From an uncultured Planctomycetaceae bacterium (GTDB lineage Bacteria > Planctomycetota > Planctomycetia > Planctomycetales > Planctomycetaceae): 64,000 nucleotides of DNA. Both the position numbers and the translations under genes were made by a program. Below, one piece after another: positions 6,073-53,144 of the stretch. Location of the stretch: assembly GCA_963815195.1 (NCBI GenBank), contig CAWFGE010000017.1, positions 128,001 to 192,000 of the forward strand. Reading direction: 5' to 3'. The notes beneath the pieces are model-generated. The model saw nothing but the letters and a program-made list of their open reading frames with translations. It had not been told where the DNA came from and made no database searches. Every line of letters begins with the position of its first letter. Within the stretch, counting starts at the first letter, position 1.

Positions 6073-6297
6073 ATGCTAGTGCTGTCAAGACAGCGGGACG
6101 AGAGCATCATCATCGGGGACGACATCGTAATTACGATTGTCAATATCCGAGGTGATAAAGTTCGCCTGGGGATTCAGGCCCCCAAAGAGATCCCCGTTCA
6201 CCGCCAGGAAGTTTACGACGCGATCAAGAGACAGAGCGCTTCGCCGAACGCGCCGGACTCGGTTGCGGATCCCACGGATTCGGAAAATGCTTCCTGA
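6073..6297 (+). CDS. csrA: Carbon storage regulator CsrA
   Basis: [56 protein letters not shown]. Confidence 0.97.
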
Positions 6298-6859: not shown

Positions 6860-8989
6860 ATGTCTCGAATCAACACAAACATCGCCGCCCTCACGGGCCT
6901 CAGGAACTTGAATAAAGCCAACGACCTGTTGAACACGTCGTTGACGCGGCTCTCGACGGGCCTTCAAATCAACTCCGGCAGAGACAACCCGGCCGGTTTG
7001 ATCGCCAGCGAATCGCTGCGGTTGCAGGTCACCAGCATCGAGCAGTCCATCAAAAACAGCAACCGGGCCAACGACGTGATTTCCACGGCGGACGGGGCAC
7101 TTGGGGAAATCAACGGGCTCTTAAGCCAGGTTCGCGGCCTGGTGCAGGAAGGCCTGAACGACGGGGCGTTATCCCAGTCGGAAATCGAGGCGAACCAGCT
7201 CCAAATCGACGCCGCCCTCTCCGCCATCAACCGGATTTCCTCGAACACCACCTTCGCCGGCGACAAGCTCATCGATGGCAGCAAGGCGTTTACGACCACC
7301 GTCTCCACGGCCGACTCGGCCAAGCTCGACGACTTCCGCATCAACGAAGCCTTGCTCGGCACGAGCGGTCAAATCGATTTGAACACCGAGGTCACCTCCG
7401 CCGCCGAGAAAGCCCAACTGCGATACGCCGGCGGCGACTTGACGGGCGCGTCCACAATTGAAATCTCCGGCTCCAACGGCCAGGAAGTGTTGTTCCTGGG
7501 CGGGTCCAGCACGGTGCAAAACATCCGCGACGCCGTGAACAACGTCTCGGATTCCACCGGCGTGACAGCCCGCGTTTTGGACGGGGCATCGCAGACGATC
7601 GCCGCCACCCAATCCGCCGCGACCTTGGATTCCGCCGCCGCCAATGCCGACGTGACCTTCACGCGGGTCGACGCCGGCACCGATGCGACCTTGGGCGGAA
7701 AAGTCTCTGTGTCCTTTGTCGATCCCGGGGCCGCCAGCCAGAGTCTGGGCGTCAACACCACCGTCAATTCCAACGGCGACGTGGACATTGTGGTCAGCCT
7801 GGCCACGGACGGGGCCTCGGCCATCACCTCCACGGCCGACGACATTCAAAACCTGATCAACAACGACGCCACCGCCAGCCAATACGTCACGGCGGCCGAA
7901 GAAGGCACGGGAGCGGGTGTGGTCGATGCCATCGCCGCGACCGACCTGACCGGTGCCCTGGACGCGGGCACGCTGAACTTCATCGACGCCCGCCCCACCG
8001 GCTCGGCCGGGACCGTGAACGTCGTTCTGGCCGATCCGGGTGCCAACAACTCGCCCTTGGGCGTGTCGGTGTCCACGAGCGGCAACGATTCCACGGTGAC
8101 CGTCAATCTCGCCACCGACGGCACCGGCACGATCACCTCGACCCTCGATGAGATCGCCGCCGCGATTCAGAACGACAGCACCGCCAGCGGGTTGATCGAC
8201 GCCAGCGTGACCGGCGAGGGCAACTCGGTCTCCACCGCCCTCGGCTCCACGGCGCTCGACCAAACGAACGGCTCGGTCCTCGCCTTCGAAAGCGCGAACT
8301 ACGGATCCCGCGAGTTCGTGGGCCTCAACGTCCTCGACGGCACCTTCGACACCACCGGCTCCGACAACACCACCGAATCCCGCCGGGACACCGGAGAGGA
8401 CATCGGCGTCACCGTCAACGGCCAGGCCGCCGAAGGCGACGGGCTGAAAGCCACCGTGCGGAACTCCACGCTCGACGCCTCCTTCAGCTTCGACAAAGAC
8501 AGCAACGCCGTCGGCACCACCGCGACCGTTCAGATCACCGGGGGCGGGGCGCTGTTCCAGATCGGCCAGGAAGTCTCCGCCGCCGGCCAGGTCGGGATCG
8601 GCATCGACGCCGTCAACACCGCCCGTCTCGGCGGCATCACCGGGAAGCTCTACGAACTCGGCACGGGCAACGGCAAAAGCCTGCTGGACGTGAGTGCCGG
8701 AAAAGCCAACGGGGCCGACCTGGTCAGCATCATCGAAGAAGCCCTCGACCGCGTCTCCACGCTCCGGGGCCGATTGGGATCGGTGCAGAAAAACGTGATC
8801 GAGACCAACGTCTCCACGCTGGGCGTGGCCTTGGAAAACATCTCCGCGGCCCGCAGCGAAATCACCGACACCGACTTCGCCTCCGAAACCGCCGCCCTCA
8901 CCAAAGCCCAGATTCTGCAACAATCGGGCATCTCCGTGTTGTCCATCGCCAACCAGGCCCCGCAGCAAGTCTTGAAGCTGCTCGGATAA
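6860..8989 (+). CDS. fliC: Flagellin (709 aa) with a large variable region
   Basis: N-terminus SRINTNIAAL...RLSTGLQINSGRDNPAGL; C-terminus SEITDTDFASETAALTKAQILQQSGISVLSIANQAPQQVLKLLG. Confidence 0.97.
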   Translation: MSRINTNIAALTGLRNLNKANDLLNTSLTRLSTGLQINSGRDNPAGLIASESLRLQVTSIEQSIKNSNRANDVISTADGALGEINGLLSQVRGLVQEGLNDGALSQSEIEANQLQIDAALSAINRISSNTTFAGDKLIDGSKAFTTTVSTADSAKLDDFRINEALLGTSGQIDLNTEVTSAAEKAQLRYAGGDLTGASTIEISGSNGQEVLFLGGSSTVQNIRDAVNNVSDSTGVTARVLDGASQTIAATQSAATLDSAAANADVTFTRVDAGTDATLGGKVSVSFVDPGAASQSLGVNTTVNSNGDVDIVVSLATDGASAITSTADDIQNLINNDATASQYVTAAEEGTGAGVVDAIAATDLTGALDAGTLNFIDARPTGSAGTVNVVLADPGANNSPLGVSVSTSGNDSTVTVNLATDGTGTITSTLDEIAAAIQNDSTASGLIDASVTGEGNSVSTALGSTALDQTNGSVLAFESANYGSREFVGLNVLDGTFDTTGSDNTTESRRDTGEDIGVTVNGQAAEGDGLKATVRNSTLDASFSFDKDSNAVGTTATVQITGGGALFQIGQEVSAAGQVGIGIDAVNTARLGGITGKLYELGTGNGKSLLDVSAGKANGADLVSIIEEALDRVSTLRGRLGSVQKNVIETNVSTLGVALENISAARSEITDTDFASETAALTKAQILQQSGISVLSIANQAPQQVLKLLG

Positions 8990-9147: not shown

Positions 9148-10554
9148 TTAACTCAAGAACCACTTCGCTTTGGAAATCTGCTCTTCCGCGTAGCGCTCTT
9201 GGAAGGATTCGCGATCGAGGGCGTACAGCGGGCTGATTTCGACCTCGCCGAAGGGCTTGTCGGCGACGGACTCGAGCCATTCGCGGTGGATTCGCAACAG
9301 GGCTTGCCTGGCTTCGGCGGGGGAGTCGTGGCCTTCCGCGTTTTTCACCGCGTTAAACTCCGCCGCGCGGTCGGCTTCCACCACCAGCGCAGTGCCCGCT
9401 TGCGGCAGGGCATCGAATATGAACCGCTCGAACTTCCACGCGTTCGGCGCCTCCGGCTCGACCAGGTCGCCGGCTTCGTTTAAGTGCGGCACCTTTTTGT
9501 GGGCGCGGTGGAAGGGCAGACTCAGTTCATCTTCGAGCAGTCGCTCCAGAAATGATCGGCTGAAGACGTGCATCGCCGTGTTCCCGGCCCAAAACCGCAG
9601 TTGTCCGTTTTCGGTTTGCTGCTTCACCTCGTCGGGCATGTCGCTGTATTCGATGATCTGGGTCCGGCCGTCCACATCGACCAGAACGCCCATTTTTTCT
9701 TCCGCCGAGCGCTTGGCGACGACCTTGGTGGACAGGTCGGAATCTTTCAGCACATGAAAGCCGAGAAACGCCGGGTCGCACACCTGGGCCGTGGGATTGT
9801 CCACCTGGTGATAGTGGAGATACTCGACGCCCCGGCGGTTCATGTCGTCGATCAGCCCGGCGTCCTTGAGGGCGAAGAGCAACCCCCCGTGCCCGTTGGG
9901 GCTGAGGCACAGCCGATGTTTGTCCGCCAAAAGCAGCCGGCCGGTCTCGGCTTCGACCGCGGGCATGTTGCCTTGCTTGAAAAAGTGCACCTCGCCTTCC
10001 GAGAGACCGAAGTTCCGATGCTGCTCGAAGTACTCCACCGTCTCCCGATGGGTGGCATCGCTGGTCATGATGTAATAGGGAATCGGATAGCCGGCAATCT
10101 TCGCGCGGGCCTGGACCTGCTCCGCGAGGATTTGAAACAGCGAATGCCCGCTCACGGGGCCGATGGGAAACATGCCCTTGGGATGCGGAAAGCCCAGCCG
10201 GGTTCCCTGGCCGCCCGCGACCAGAATCGTCCCCACTTTCCCGGCGGCGAGGAGTTCGTGGCCCTTTTTCGCGGCGGCCCGCCATTGGTTTTGCTCGGCC
10301 TCCGACTTTGGCAGGCGGACGATCTGATGCGGCGGCTCGGCCCGGCGGGCTTTCTCGGCGGGCGATTCGCTCGGCGTTTCCGCTTTGCCCCCGGCACAAA
10401 GTTCCCGCAGCTGCGCAAAATCCACCGCCGCCATTTGGCCCGCCAAGGTGTTTTGCTGGTCGGCAGTCAATTCCCCCCACCAGCGGAGCACATGCGATTG
10501 GTCGAACTGTTCGAGCGTTTTTACCAATGAAGCCGGCGGCGTTTGCTGAGTCAT
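9148..10554 (-). CDS. UDPGP-family uridylyltransferase (UDP-GlcNAc/UDP-glucose pyrophosphorylase)
   Basis: ILVAGGQGTRLGFPHPKG, FKQGNMPAV, SPNGHGG, HQVDNP, IIEYSD, KFERFIFD, EFNAVKN. Confidence 0.92.
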   Translation of the reverse strand: MTQQTPPASLVKTLEQFDQSHVLRWWGELTADQQNTLAGQMAAVDFAQLRELCAGGKAETPSESPAEKARRAEPPHQIVRLPKSEAEQNQWRAAAKKGHELLAAGKVGTILVAGGQGTRLGFPHPKGMFPIGPVSGHSLFQILAEQVQARAKIAGYPIPYYIMTSDATHRETVEYFEQHRNFGLSEGEVHFFKQGNMPAVEAETGRLLLADKHRLCLSPNGHGGLLFALKDAGLIDDMNRRGVEYLHYHQVDNPTAQVCDPAFLGFHVLKDSDLSTKVVAKRSAEEKMGVLVDVDGRTQIIEYSDMPDEVKQQTENGQLRFWAGNTAMHVFSRSFLERLLEDELSLPFHRAHKKVPHLNEAGDLVEPEAPNAWKFERFIFDALPQAGTALVVEADRAAEFNAVKNAEGHDSPAEARQALLRIHREWLESVADKPFGEVEISPLYALDRESFQERYAEEQISKAKWFLS

Positions 10555-10599
10555 TTTTGTCCGTCGAGATTTGAGATTCGCTTGAAACCGAAAACTGAA

Positions 10600-10968
10600 C
10601 TAAGAGTGCCGGAGGTACAGGACCAGACTGTAAACCACGACTCCACCCACGACAACCGTGGCAAATTGGAGAAGGCGGGCGGCGATGTCTTCGCGTTTGC
10701 GGGCGATGATTTGTGAGATCACGGTGACGAAGGCGACCATGAAAAACTTGTAAAACACCATGCCCTTGATGTTCCAACGGTGAAAGAAGTACGCCGCCAC
10801 CGGGTTGCCTTCGGTGAAACCGGGCTGCCGGAGGAGGAAATACGTCATAAACACGTCCAAAGCGCTCACGAGCAGAAACGCGACGGTTTCGGCCTCCAGC
10901 GGCAATTGTCCGCCGAGGAGCGACTGGCTTTTCTTTCGTTTCGTCCGTTTTCGCGTTGGCTTGGACAT
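10600..10968 (-). CDS. Small membrane protein (DUF5658-like)
   Basis: LLVSALDVFMTY...EGNPVA...YKF; three hydrophobic helices. Confidence 0.75.
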   Translation of the reverse strand: MSKPTRKRTKRKKSQSLLGGQLPLEAETVAFLLVSALDVFMTYFLLRQPGFTEGNPVAAYFFHRWNIKGMVFYKFFMVAFVTVISQIIARKREDIAARLLQFATVVVGGVVVYSLVLYLRHS

Positions 10969-10997
10969 CGGGCGGCATTCGTGGGTGATGGCTCGTT

Positions 10998-11327
10998 TCG
11001 GTTTCCTGAAAACGTGCAGGAACTGACGTGACAAGTCGCCGTTTTTCGCTTGTAACGACCCACCACAACGTTCACTTTCGGGAGTGTTTCGAGTGCGTTC
11101 AGATACACTTGTTGGCGATCTCCGCGAGTTCCCATCCTAAGAGCGGTAAAATAATAGATCGAGATCACATCGTCGTCTTGTCGCAGTAACTCGAAGTATT
11201 TCTGAAGGTTAAGCCATTTGTGGGCCGTCCCCTTTATTGATCCATTGTACATGTTGAAGCCATCAACATACACAAAGCTGCGGGGTTTTGGATTTTTCGT
11301 GAACGAATTCCCTTGATTTTGCGTCAT
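10998..11327 (-). pseudogene. Truncated NYN (LabA/DUF88, PIN-like) nuclease
   Basis: VYVDGFNMY...KWLNL...IYYFTA...RQQVYLNALETLPKVNVVVGRY. The C-terminal EKxxDV and SGDSD acidic motifs are absent. Low GC. The 3' boundary is approximate. Confidence 0.75.
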
Positions 11328-11671
11328 CACAATATAAACTTCCTGCTGGATTTGACGATAAATGAAAACGACTCCCCGGCGTTTTTGCCGGTTAGGCGAC
11401 CTATATGGTCGCTTTTTTATTTGGCGACATCCAAATAGCCTCGCCACGACCACGCCTCCCCGCGATCATTCCGGGTTTTTCCCCAACTCCGTGAATGTCA
11501 TTTTTGCAAAAACGGATCCGAAATGCTTTGTAAACTTTGCATTTTCGGAAGAATCCGCAGTCCCAGCCCTCGGAATTCCCCTAGAGGTCGTTTTTCACAA
11601 GTCGTTTTATAATAACATGTTGCGGAATATGCCTGCCTCAATTCCCCATTTTCGCGGTCCGAAAATCCCCA

Positions 11672-11688
11672 CTGGCACACGGCGTGCT
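11672..11688 (+). promoter_or_regulatory. sigma54-type -24/-12 promoter
   Basis: CTGGCACACGGCGTGCT: GG(11674-5)-N10-GC(11686-7), close to the YTGGCAC-N5-TTGCW consensus. Confidence 0.6.
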
Positions 11689-11698
11689 TTGGTTTGGG

Positions 11699-11902
11699 AG
11701 CAGAGTGAGAGAGGCTCAAGAGATGCAAAAACAAGGGTGAGAGCTTGTTTCCCGCGACACTCTTGAGCAGAGAAAGAGAGAGAAATTGACCCGCCGGCCC
11801 GTGGAGACGGGCCTCCCCCACCTCAACATTGGCACCCCCCGTGCCACACTCCCCGACAGAGCCAAGAGGATTCCCGCATCCTCTTGGCTCCTTTCCTTTT
11901 TT
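11699..11902 (+). ncRNA. Candidate ~200-nt structured sRNA or leader RNA
   Basis: Three hairpins (11714-11768, 11796-11813, 11830-11846) and a terminator, directly downstream of the sigma54 motif; no long ORF. Confidence 0.55.
11859..11902 (+). terminator. Intrinsic terminator
   Basis: GAGCCAAGAGGAT-tcccgc-ATCCTCTTGGCTC followed by CTTTCCTTTTTT. Confidence 0.8.
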
Positions 11903-12330
11903 GGATCCCATTGAACCTTCCCGCAAACCGCGTGTCCATTTCTGTGCCGTGACAATGAGTCGGAACCGGGGCTAGTTTTCAAACGGTTTTCGCGTCGGAA
12001 AGAACGTGATTGATATGAGCCTGACTCCGGCGTAAAATCAAAGTGAAATACACGGGGGCTTCCCATCAACGAAGCCCTTGATCGAATGCCATCCATTCAG
12101 GGTCGTTGCCGATTGTTGGATCGCCCAGCCGTTATTCAAACATTTCTCGCGGAACTTCGAGCCGAAGATTGGCCCCGAACATGCGCCATCTCAAGTGATC
12201 CCCACCTCAGTTCTTGCCCGGTCCGCCGCCTCGGCGTGATGCGGACGGGACCGCTGCTTCCAGTGATCCCCAATCTCTTTTCCCGGTGCCTTGGCCTAAT
12301 GCGCTTTCGCGATCTTTTTGCGCACGCCGT

Positions 12331-12347
12331 TTGGCACCGCCCTTGTT
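12331..12347 (+). promoter_or_regulatory. Possible sigma54 promoter of hflX
   Basis: TTGGCACCGCCCTTGTT: GG-N10-GT (non-consensus -12), about 30 nt upstream of the start codon. Confidence 0.35.
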
Positions 12348-12375
12348 CCTTTTCTGCACTGCATGAGGAAATTCC

Positions 12376-13707
12376 TTGACGCAATCTCAACGCGAACAAC
12401 TGAAAGTTCAACACCAGAAAGCGATTCTGGTGTCCGTCTTGTCCAAAGATGACCCGACGCCCAAGGAGCACGCCGTCGATGAATTGGCGGGCCTCGTGAA
12501 AACCGCCGGGGCCGAGGTTGTGGGGACGTTGGTGCAAATCCGCGAGCATCCCCATCCCGCGACCTGCCTGGGGCCGGGGAAACTGTTGGAGCTCAAGCAG
12601 CTCATCGGCATGCACGATGCGGAGTTGGTCGTGTTCGACAACCATCTCACGCCCGCCCAGGGCCGGAAGCTGGAAGAGGAAACCAAAACGATCATCGTCG
12701 ATCGCAGCGAGGTGATTCTGGACATCTTCGCCACCGCCGCCCGCACGCACGAAGCGAAACTGCAGGTGGAACTGGCCCAGCTTCTCTACTTCCGGCCGCG
12801 CTTAAAGCGGATGTGGACGCACTTGGAGCGGATTACCGGGGGCATCGGAGCCGGGCGCGGGCCGGGGGAGAAGCAGTTGGAAACCGACCGCCGGCTGCTC
12901 GACCGCCGGGTCTCCGAACTCAAGCGGAAGCTGGCCGAGATCGAAAGCCGACGCGAACGCACCGTGGCGAATCGGCACGATGACATGACGGTCTCGCTCG
13001 TGGGCTACACGAACGCCGGCAAGAGTACGCTGATGAACGCCCTCACCGGGGCCGGGGTTTACGTGGCCAACAAACTGTTCGCCACGCTCGATACCCGCAC
13101 GCGGAAGTGGAATATCCCGCACTGCGGGGATGTGCTGTTGAGCGACACCGTCGGGTTCGTGCGGAACCTGCCGCACCATCTGGTGGCGTCGTTCCGTTCG
13201 ACTTTGGAAGAAGCCCGCCGGGCCGACTTGCTTTTGCACGTCGTGGACGCGAGCCATCCCGATGCGACGCAACAGATTGAAACGGTTTACAAGGTCCTCG
13301 AAGAAATTGGCGTGGACTTTAGCAACGTCGTCCTGGTCCTCAATAAGGCCGATGCGATCAGCGACCGCTCGCTGTTGGATGTGCTCCGCCGGAAGTATGA
13401 AAACAGCATTTCGGTCAGCGCCAAAACGGGCGACGGCTTGGACCGCTTGACCGAATCCGTCATAAGCCGGCTGTCGGGCGGCTATGTCGAGGCCGAGATC
13501 CAAACCGGCGTGGGCAACGGAAAGTTGTTCGCGTATCTCGCCGAGCATGGGGAGATTCTGCGGCGGGAGTACGAGGATTCCCGCGTGACGCTCACGTGCC
13601 GATTGCCCAAGCGGCTCGCGGAAAAAATCGCGGATGCGGAGACGACGATCACCCTCCCCCACGGAGAACTCGCCGCCGCGGAAAAAAACGGCCGCGACAC
13701 GTGGTAG
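12376..13707 (+). CDS. hflX: Ribosome-splitting GTPase HflX
   Basis: ILDIFA...EAKLQVELAQL, GPGEKQLETDRR, GYTNAGKST, LFATLD, DTVGF, NKAD. Confidence 0.97.
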   Translation: MTQSQREQLKVQHQKAILVSVLSKDDPTPKEHAVDELAGLVKTAGAEVVGTLVQIREHPHPATCLGPGKLLELKQLIGMHDAELVVFDNHLTPAQGRKLEEETKTIIVDRSEVILDIFATAARTHEAKLQVELAQLLYFRPRLKRMWTHLERITGGIGAGRGPGEKQLETDRRLLDRRVSELKRKLAEIESRRERTVANRHDDMTVSLVGYTNAGKSTLMNALTGAGVYVANKLFATLDTRTRKWNIPHCGDVLLSDTVGFVRNLPHHLVASFRSTLEEARRADLLLHVVDASHPDATQQIETVYKVLEEIGVDFSNVVLVLNKADAISDRSLLDVLRRKYENSISVSAKTGDGLDRLTESVISRLSGGYVEAEIQTGVGNGKLFAYLAEHGEILRREYEDSRVTLTCRLPKRLAEKIADAETTITLPHGELAAAEKNGRDTW

Positions 13708-52333: not shown

Positions 52334-53144
52334 ATGCTGGTCCTCACCCGCCGCGAAAATGAAAAAATCGTGTTTCCCGAAGTCGGGATCACGGTCGAAC
52401 TGGTCTCGATCTCTGGCTCCCGTGCTCGATTGGGGATCCAAGCCCCGGCGGAAGTTCGGATCCTCCGGCACGAGATTGCCGACAAGGAAATGGCGGAGAA
52501 GCCGCTGACCTTCGCCGTCAAAAACCGCCCGCAACTGGCCGCCTTGGCGAAGCAGGCGCAATCGGGCAAGCCCTCGCACGCGGTGCGGAACCATCTCAAC
52601 TCGACCTCGATCGCCGCGCAGCTTCTGCGCGGCAGCTTGACATGGGGATGGTCGATGAAGCCGAGGCCACGGTGCAAACGCTGCTTTCCGAACTCGACGC
52701 GCTCAATACCGAAATCACGAACCCCGCGCCGGCCAAATCCTCAAAATCGGGGAAAGGCGAAGCGGCCCCCGCGCGCGGCCGGTGGCGTTGATCGTCGAAG
52801 ACAACGACAACGAGCGGCATCTGCTGGCCGGGTTTTTGAACATGGTGGGCTTTGAGGTGGTCACGGCGGAGAACGGCGTGGCGGCCCTCGAGTATTTGAC
52901 CTCGCACGAGCGGCCCGACGTGGTCCTGCTCGACATGCTGATGCCCGAATGCGACGGCCCGACCGCCGTCACCAAGATCCGCCGAAAAGCGGAATTGGAG
53001 GGCCTGCGGATTTTCGCGGTCAGCGGCACATCGCCCGCCCAATTGGGCCTGGAAACCGGGCCCAAGGGAATCGACCGCTGGTTCCATAAGCCGATCAACC
53101 CCGAAGAACTGGCCCGCGAAATGGCCAAGGATTTGGTGTCTTAG
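52334..53144 (+). CDS. CsrA-domain + H-box-like helix + receiver fusion (~270 aa), two 1-nt deletions near 52630 and 52777
   Basis: MLVLTRRENEKI...RARLGIQAPAEVRILRHE; SHAVRNHLNSTSIAAQLL; middle frame RQLDMGMVDEAEATVQTLLSELDAL; REC LIVEDND...LLDMLMPECDG...AVSG...FHKP. Confidence 0.75.

Follow-up and report, generated by a model that had tools for sequence, protein, structure and literature searches.

Between a minus-strand open reading frame (ORF; 10866–11327) and the plus-strand hflX gene of a planctomycete genome lies a gap of about 1 kb, which carries on its plus strand a predicted small RNA (sRNA) gene with a sigma-54-type promoter and its own terminator. This gene is the subject of the present study. 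The stretch analyzed, referred to as the window, comprises 64,000 nucleotides (nt) from an uncultured Planctomycetaceae bacterium (GenBank assembly GCA_963815195.1, contig CAWFGE010000017.1, positions 128,001 to 192,000), and all coordinates below refer to it. The original prediction for the site, made from the letters alone, proposed a sigma-54-driven structured RNA with two mutually exclusive folds and a five-codon upstream ORF (uORF), acting either in trans or as an attenuator of hflX. Its promoter motif, three hairpins, AG-rich linker, GGAG loop, C-rich linkers, and 13-bp terminator were all recovered at the same positions. The minus-strand ORF gave no Pfam match. The features of the locus are the following.

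11496–11508, plus strand: distal enhancer-like dyad TGTCATTTTTGCA, predicted to be bound by an enhancer-binding protein (EBP) and conserved in all four genomes of the genus.
11529–11541, plus strand: proximal enhancer-like dyad TGTAAACTTTGCA, which gives a two-dyad layout.
11643–11661, no strand assigned: inverted repeat ATTTTCG-N5-CGAAAAT abutting the −24 element, seen in the sequence.
11673–11688, plus strand: sigma-54-type promoter TGGCAC-N5-GTGCT, with the −24 GG at 11674–11675 and the −12 GC at 11686–11687, predicting a +1 near 11699.
11699–11902, plus strand: predicted transcript of about 204 nt, its start deduced from the spacing of the promoter elements and its end from the position of the terminator.
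11701–11714, plus strand: purine-rich conserved 5′ motif CAGAGUGAGAGAGG, predicted from fold and conservation to be unpaired.
11714–11768, plus strand: hairpin 1, predicted from the fold, differing between genera and holding the five-codon uORF (11723–11740).
11769–11789, plus strand: AG-rich linker AGAGAAAGAGAGAGAAAUUGA, in which a GAGAGAGA-type tract is conserved.
11790–11795, plus strand: C-rich motif 1, CCCGCC (CCCACC in most genera), unpaired, with a column identity of 0.8–0.99 and a mean unpaired probability of about 0.7–0.8.
11796–11813, plus strand: hairpin 2, GGCCCG[UGGAGA]CGGGCC, the most conserved element (six pairs, 96.8% paired, four compensatory).
11814–11826, plus strand: C-rich motif 2, UCCCCCACCUCAA (consensus UCCCACC), unpaired according to its unpaired probability.
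11830–11846, plus strand: hairpin 3, UGGCAC[CCCCC]GUGCCA, present in many homologues, not in all.
11847–11854, plus strand: C-rich motif 3, CACUCCCC (consensus CACACC), unpaired by the same measure.
11859–11902, plus strand: intrinsic terminator with a 13-bp stem (11859–11890) directly followed on its 3′ side by CTTTCCTTTTTT, the loop UCCCGC (11872–11877), and the pyrimidine tail CUUUCCUUUUUU; 12 pairs tested, 96.8% paired, ten compensatory, loop CCCGC constant.
12376–13707, plus strand: hflX, the downstream neighbour, encoding a GTPase (Pfam GTP-bdg_N, GTP-bdg_M, MMR_HSR1, and HflX_C).

The promoter (11673–11688) is invariant in the four genus genomes, and its flanks vary. Beyond the genus, the pattern GG[CT]A[CT]-N5-N[TCG]GC was found on the RNA strand, at most 260 nt upstream of the conserved core, once each in 39 of 43 loci, compared with a background of 0.19 per kb in the same loci. 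The motif of one of these loci (L027) lies inside the RNA, probably by chance, and among the four loci lacking it, one (L014) has only 49 nt of upstream contig. When +1 was set 12 nt after the C of the −12 element, the conserved hexamer GAGUGAGAGA fell at +3 to +8 in most loci, that is, at a fixed distance. The predicted RNA length was 175–224 nt in 36 of 38 loci, with exceptions of 114 and 325 nt. The TGGCAC-N5-GTGC motif of the window (11673–11687, predicted start near 11699) is an instance of this pattern. Hairpin 3 of the RNA also reads TGGCAC-N5-GTGC (11830–11844) and thereby presents a second sigma-54-like motif, inside the RNA gene; it is probably a coincidence of the GGCAC/GUGCC stem, the spacing being N3–N4 in the other genus genomes.

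Upstream of the promoter, 22 of 38 loci carry the dyad TGT[AC]A-N3-T[TG][AG]CA at a distance of 135–181 nt from the GG; two such dyads were present in five of the 38, including the four genus genomes. No such dyad occurred in 102 kb of locus background. The arms of the inverted repeat next to the −24 element differ and yet stay complementary in two genus genomes (CTTTTC..GAAAAG in G001 and AATCT..AGATT in G002, compared by eye), as might be expected of a hairpin or a dyad site. One rpoN gene and at least 12 full-length EBP domains (12 of them with E ≤ 5e-51) were identified in the genome. The control region has the layout of a classical enhancer-dependent promoter, with EBP binding and transcription as its predicted activities.

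The RNA is present in a single copy in its own 8.87-Mb genome. A DNA search of 41 related genomes found it in five: the window's own, the remaining three of the genus (at 93, 85, and 85% identity), and a member of another genus, in which the match was weak. The alignment of the four genus genomes becomes identical exactly at the −24/−12 element, lapses in a spacer of about 12 nt, resumes at CAGAGTGAGAG, and continues to the T-tract. The sequences upstream of the promoter could not be aligned among these genomes, and conservation of the RNA itself extends from about 11701 to the T-tract.

Two covariance models were used for more distant homologues, one built from the four genus sequences (R1) and a second of the conserved core (R2). 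In a sample of 151 genomes of the same family, 63 had an R1 match, always exactly one, and these represented 44 of 92 genera. Several carriers, among them G141, G077, G142, G022, and G047, are complete genomes in a single contig. R2 was applied to a sample of the class and matched 17 of 151 genomes including the window's own, with 14 of the 35 genomes in family f1 being positive and two weak matches among 115 genomes of 16 families outside f1. One of these weak matches, in family f3, looks real: the copy shows a perfect TTGGCAC-N5-TTGC promoter, the terminator loop UUUCCCGCU, and two further UUCCCGC motifs (three in total). A pattern scan for hairpin 2 across genome contigs was unspecific and gave at least 120 stretches, mostly in GC-rich genomes of other phyla. 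Applied to 80 of the pattern-scan loci among the matches listed, R2 yielded seven matches in five loci (E ≤ 0.01), and only three loci (L111, L136, and L137) were strong, with 94–108 bits.

The genomes without an R1 match include at least one carrier. In G011, which both models missed, a diverged copy (L204) was recognized by eye between about 380 and 120 nt before hflX; it shows TGGCAC-N5-CTGCA, followed by GGAGAGUGACACCC, the C-rich tracts CCCAUCCCGCC and CCCCUUCCCCCCCC, and a GC-rich terminator. Inspection by eye of four other R1-negative genomes revealed nothing similar upstream of their hflX. Because the models missed the diverged copy in G011, the RNA family is wider than the count of 63 in 151 genomes indicates.

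Folding of 11695–11905 gave a minimum free energy of −81.4 kcal/mol compared to −63.6 ± 4.9 kcal/mol for 200 dinucleotide shuffles (z −3.6), none of which was as low. Similarly, all but one of the 38 full-length homologues had a z below −2 (median −4.1). The core alignment of 31 sequences comprises 18 pairs in hairpin 2 and the terminator. These were paired in 96.8% of cases, with changes on both sides at 14 of the 18 pairs. None of 500 column shuffles reached any of five covariation measures, and sliding the partner by one to three columns lowered pairing to 29–57%. The terminator stem varies freely (GAGAGGA/UCCUCUC, GAAAGGA/UCCUUUC, GGUUGGA/UCCGACC, and others) around an unchanged CCCGC loop, and the GGAG loop of hairpin 2 is near-invariant across the core alignment. 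In other genera, hairpins of unrelated sequence occupy the place of hairpin 1; within the genus, pairing of its inner stem is kept through changed bases in G002 and G003. The AG-rich linker could pair with the 3′ tail (69.6% of alignment cells pair), mostly by A-U and G-U pairs in low-complexity sequence. A protein-coding reading was rejected, since the overlapping ORFs on both strands lack a Pfam match and the conservation pattern is that of a paired RNA.

Based on conservation, covariation, and promoter statistics, we put the probability that the locus holds a real, conserved sRNA gene under enhancer and sigma-54 control at about 0.9. The core of the original prediction is supported at the level of predicted function: a sigma-54-type promoter would drive an RNA of about 200 nt that is structured and closed by a terminator.

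To explore membership in a known family, the region 10500–13000 was compared with Rfam 15 at a permissive cut-off (E up to 10), and no family reached its gathering score. The scan returned four matches only, of 19.8, 18.4, 17.1, and 16 bits compared to gathering scores of 35–46.6, with E values of 1–3. The 16-bit match, to SorX at 11308–11386, is probably due to chance. We consider it extremely improbable that the RNA is a diverged member of a catalogued family such as 6S, CsrB/Rsm, Qrr, GlmY, RsaE, or sX13: its size and sigma-54 promoter resemble Qrr and GlmY, and its C-rich motifs resemble RsaE and sX13, but none of the four weak matches belongs to one of these families. Comparison with the main text and supplements of Weinberg 2010 showed the 'Rhodopirellula-1' motif to be another element, with a consensus of its own. 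Keyword searches of the literature found no described regulatory sRNA of Planctomycetes. Passages of an R. baltica stress-array paper mention rpoN and no sRNA.

The position upstream of hflX had suggested attenuation of this gene. We evaluated 31 loci for their neighbours. In 12 of them, from several genera, hflX lies 3′ of the RNA on the same strand, at a distance of 170–700 nt. The other 19 are followed by genes for malate dehydrogenase, Mur ligase, Nramp, or citrate synthase, or by a convergent gene for DUF1501 or RNase III, and five of these 19 carry a transglutaminase-like gene upstream of the RNA. Furthermore, two putative promoters that would belong to hflX were located between the RNA and hflX in the window.

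11913–11936, plus strand: promoter of the extracytoplasmic function (ECF) sigma type, GAACC-N14-GTGTC, assigned to hflX.
12010–12038, plus strand: sigma-70-like promoter, TTGATA-17-TAAAAT, assigned to hflX.

The patterns GAACC-N12-18-GTGT[CG] and TTGNN-N17-19-TANANT, both defined after seeing the data, each occur between RNA and hflX in 11 of the 12 loci, at genome backgrounds of 0.008 and 0.018 per kb, respectively. The loci used for hflX promoters and starts were the window and L009, L010, L004, L028, L017, L023, L027, L020, L034, L018, and L015. The hflX gene starts with TTG, preceded by a GGAGG-like site, apparently in all 11 loci inspected.

Two further elements of the attenuator hypothesis were not borne out by comparison. 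The five-codon uORF exists in the window, but its ATG is missing in two of the three other genus genomes (G002 and G003). The complementarity between the 5′ segment (the 5′ arm of hairpin 1) and the 3′ arm of the terminator is likewise present in the window, with −17.6 kcal/mol compared to −23.6 kcal/mol for the native stem. Shuffling with preserved composition gave an equally good value in 38 of 1000 cases; across the family, however, complementarity of the 5′ domain to this arm had a median z of −0.14, and none of 38 loci fell below −2. For six of these 38 loci the test is uninformative, the automatic arm picker having taken a trivial stem of 3–4 nt. Freeing the terminator would cost about 17 kcal/mol.

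Since hflX follows in only 12 of 31 loci and has promoters of its own, the uORF is lost, and the alternative pairing is weak and not conserved, the attenuator reading fails; the RNA is, as far as these predicted features tell, independent of hflX. A related explanation would make the RNA a cis-acting leader or an extra promoter for hflX: sigma-54 transcripts would partly read through the C-interrupted U-tract and place hflX under an additional, enhancer-dependent control, which alternative folding might adjust. The tail CUUUCCUUU is indeed an imperfect U-tract, the diverged copy in G011 adds a further case to the 12 loci with hflX downstream, and the alternative pairing just described would provide the switch. 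Against this, other genes follow in the majority of loci, some of them convergent, the 170–700-nt gap holds the conserved ECF-like and sigma-70-like promoters, the uORF is not conserved, the alternative pairing does not exceed chance across the family, and the energy needed to open the terminator is high. Additionally, the hflX start region paired with the RNA no better than shuffled controls in 11 loci (z −0.75 to +1.43). We therefore regard a role in cis as very unlikely.

The surroundings of hflX showed some other features. In its leader (12100–12200), the blocks GCCGATTGT..ATCGCC and GAAGATTGGCCCCGAACATGCGCC are invariant in the four genus genomes and lack a third-codon pattern; they may form a leader RNA element. 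A 97-codon ORF (12086–12379) ends in TTGA and overlaps the hflX start, and the alignment indels in this region are not multiples of three. At the other side of the RNA, a terminator-like plus-strand hairpin (11394–11414; AGGCGACC..GGTCGCTT plus TTTTATTT) lies in the divergent gap, with no plus-strand gene 5′ of it.

The RNA is bipartite, with a purine-rich 5′ half and a pyrimidine-rich 3′ half. Hexamers resembling GAGUGAGAGA occur on average 4.2 times per RNA compared to 0.14 in shuffles and are located in the 5′ third, and CCCRC-type motifs occur 5.0 times compared to 1.9; as both motif classes were defined post hoc, the enrichment test is circular to that extent. The mean unpaired probability was 0.7–0.8 for the conserved C-rich tracts and 0.8–0.9 for the loops of hairpin 2 and the terminator.

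Our hypothesis is that a dedicated EBP would sense a signal and switch the sRNA gene on from the sigma-54 promoter, that the RNA would end at its predicted intrinsic terminator, and that its unpaired pyrimidine-rich elements would pair with purine- or G-rich mRNA sites and thereby change translation or stability. Pairing would involve the CCCRCC-type tracts, three in number, together with the loop of the terminator (UCCCGC) and its CUUUCCUUU tail; a second candidate seed is the purine-rich stretch at the 5′ end (GAGUGAGAGA). Base pairing in trans appears the likeliest mode because the architecture is that of sRNAs with multiple C-rich motifs, namely RsaE/RoxS and sX13, and the exposed C-rich tracts make the trans-acting option the best fit among those originally proposed. 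The genome also encodes Hfq, in line with such a mode. The probability that the RNA is a trans-acting regulator pairing through its exposed C-rich motifs is about 0.6 in our estimate.

Several results weigh against this interpretation. R1 matches are absent in over half of the family genomes, so that the gene would be either dispensable or fast-diverging there, and the start, the end, and the expression of the RNA are all predicted from sequence. A search of sequencing runs for this DNA listed DNA metagenomes only. The genome-wide target scan (8-mer seeds and duplexfold) yielded no standout target; its top matches lie mostly inside coding regions and are dominated by GGUGGGGG-type sites. The designation of the C-rich tracts as anti-Shine-Dalgarno seeds applies in a loose sense at most: their complements (GGUGGG and GCGGGA) showed no enrichment at the ribosome-binding sites of this genome, whose sequences are AGGAG, AAGGA, or GAGGA. 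With rough gene calls, GGTGGG was found in 0.35% of 1412 start regions compared to 0.21% in the control window, which is no enrichment, and GCGGGA was not enriched in these start regions either. Exact 10-mer complements of the 5′ motif numbered four to five sites, few and uninformative. Finally, protein binding would explain the repeated motifs equally well.

The last point leads to the main rival, a sponge or decoy that sequesters a protein. Its purine-rich GAGAG/GGAG repeats or its CCCRCC repeats would bind a CsrA paralogue, Hfq, or a C-rich-binding protein, which would be titrated once the RNA is induced, in the manner of CsrB/RsmZ or CrcZ; CrcZ is a precedent in being a sigma-54-dependent sponge. 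Such a function would agree with the nine CsrA-domain matches above the Pfam cut-off and the single Hfq encoded in the genome, with the near-invariant GGAG(A) loop of hairpin 2, and with the three- to fivefold repetition of both motif classes. The purine-rich motifs, moreover, resemble ribosome-binding-site pentamers of the genome (AGGAG, GGAGA, GAGAG, and AGAGG), and a sponge would account for a duplex scan without an mRNA target. Direct CsrA binding, which the original prediction had offered as an option, is not favoured by the motif counts: GGA occurs only twice in the window RNA and 3.4 times on average in homologues, about the level of composition by an estimate made without a computed expectation, and far below CsrB-type RNAs. 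Some homologues have lost the GGA of the hairpin-2 loop, which reads UUGAGAAA in L030 and L033 and GUGACA in L035, and no binding protein is known for CCCRCC. We judge a sponge to be unlikely. Two of the nine CsrA-domain matches lie in the window (6073–6228 and 52334–52486, both on the plus strand), the first in a gene directly upstream of a gene for a 709-aa flagellin (6860–8989, plus strand).

For the base-pairing sRNA, the nature of the activator was explored through the dyads. Genome-wide, 52 such dyads were found in the window's own genome. Those with a sigma-54 motif 110–185 nt further on lie upstream of two hsp20 pairs, dnaK, a GroEL-like gene, the gene of a 215-aa ORF, and the sRNA. 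Pfam HSP20 and HSP70 matches confirm one hsp20 pair and dnaK, and the GroEL-like gene was identified from its N-terminal translation only. The heat-shock loci are found at C15:606011(+), C22:81935(−), C13:664814(+), and C13:435194(−) (L181–L183 and L185). These genes have one to three TGTCA-N3-TGGCA dyads 80–185 nt upstream of a −24/−12 motif, and dyads of the form TG(C/T)CA-N3-TG(G/A)CA were seen in this genome as well as before hsp20 in four of five other genomes examined. The data suggest an enhancer-dependent heat-shock regulon in the family. In PMC12316311, the predicted sigma-54 promoters of Planctomycetia are reported to be enriched in chaperone and CsrA COGs (clusters of orthologous groups), and the sigma-54 motifs before heat-shock genes found here fit this finding.

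A shared activator for the sRNA and the heat-shock genes was considered and rejected, as the second half-site differs (TT(G/A)CA in the sRNA dyads, TG(G/A)CA in the heat-shock dyads) and the sRNA dyads keep T at position 10 across genera. The two dyad types are more likely the sites of related but distinct activators, and the sRNA is therefore not claimed as a heat-shock gene. The only other strict sigma-54 motif with an sRNA-type dyad in the genome (TGTAAGTTTTACA, 139 nt upstream) was found at C10:188859(−) (L184, L201); downstream of it lie the 215-aa ORF, which lacks a Pfam match, and then scpB. This gene may belong to the regulon of the activator of the sRNA.

Tentatively, the RNA could be viewed as the dedicated output of a planctomycete EBP/sigma-54 signalling pathway, similar to Qrr or GlmY. 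It would then be a global riboregulator built of two modules, one seed in its purine-rich 5′ part and a series of CCCRCC/UCCCGC seeds, and would be connected to a stress programme. The tie to stress is drawn from the neighbour hflX, a ribosome-rescue GTPase gene with an ECF-type promoter, and from an enhancer that is a variant of the dnaK/groEL/hsp20 one. We consider this wider picture possible, but less likely than not.

The locus combines a readable control region of dyads and a sigma-54 promoter with a clear RNA core, so that activator, signal, and targets would be within reach of genetics in a cultured carrier. The analysis also corrects a tempting misreading, as the RNA, despite its position, is not an hflX attenuator. 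If the interpretation holds, it would represent a Qrr- or GlmY-like arrangement in a phylum for which the keyword searches returned no described sRNA.

Among known systems, the control region is closest to those of Qrr (Vibrionaceae; LuxO and sigma-54) and of GlmY/GlmZ (Enterobacteriaceae; GlrR and sigma-54). Shared features are an sRNA gene with a −24/−12 promoter, its own intrinsic terminator, and dyad activator sites about 100–180 nt upstream. The LuxO site reads TTGCA-N3-TGCAA. The sRNA-type enhancer appears to serve very few promoters in this genome, and EBPs dedicated to sRNA genes likewise serve few promoters. GlmY is described in PMC3045617. The RNA described here gave no sequence or structure match to these families in Rfam and stems from another phylum; compared to Qrr it is also about twice as long and exists in a single copy.

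A feature shared with RsaE/RoxS of Firmicutes and sX13 of Xanthomonas is the placement of several conserved C-rich tracts in the loops, the terminator loop among them, and in the single-stranded linkers of an sRNA with multiple hairpins. As described in PMC4409812 for RsaE/RoxS and in PMC3771888 for sX13, these RNAs regulate through C-rich motifs whose pairing partners are G-rich sequences in or close to ribosome-binding sites. The RNA presented here differs in having CCCRCC/UCCCGC instead of a plain run of four to five C, in the lack of enrichment of the complements at ribosome-binding sites, in its sigma-54-type promoter, and in an added long purine-rich 5′ domain, and the Rfam scan revealed no homology.

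Two other systems share single traits with it. The Listeria hflXr leader, reportedly an attenuator upstream of an hflX paralogue, is similar in that a structured RNA with a terminator precedes an hflX gene; here, in contrast, the link to hflX is restricted to a minority of loci, hflX has its own predicted promoters, and no conserved uORF or anti-terminator is present. With the sponges CsrB, RsmY, and RsmZ it has in common the abundance of CsrA genes and a conserved GGA-containing hairpin loop, and it differs from them by two GGA in about 200 nt compared to many GGA loops, as well as by the missing Rfam match. The kind of gene, a sigma-54-driven sRNA, is thus known from other bacteria, and the RNA family described here is new.

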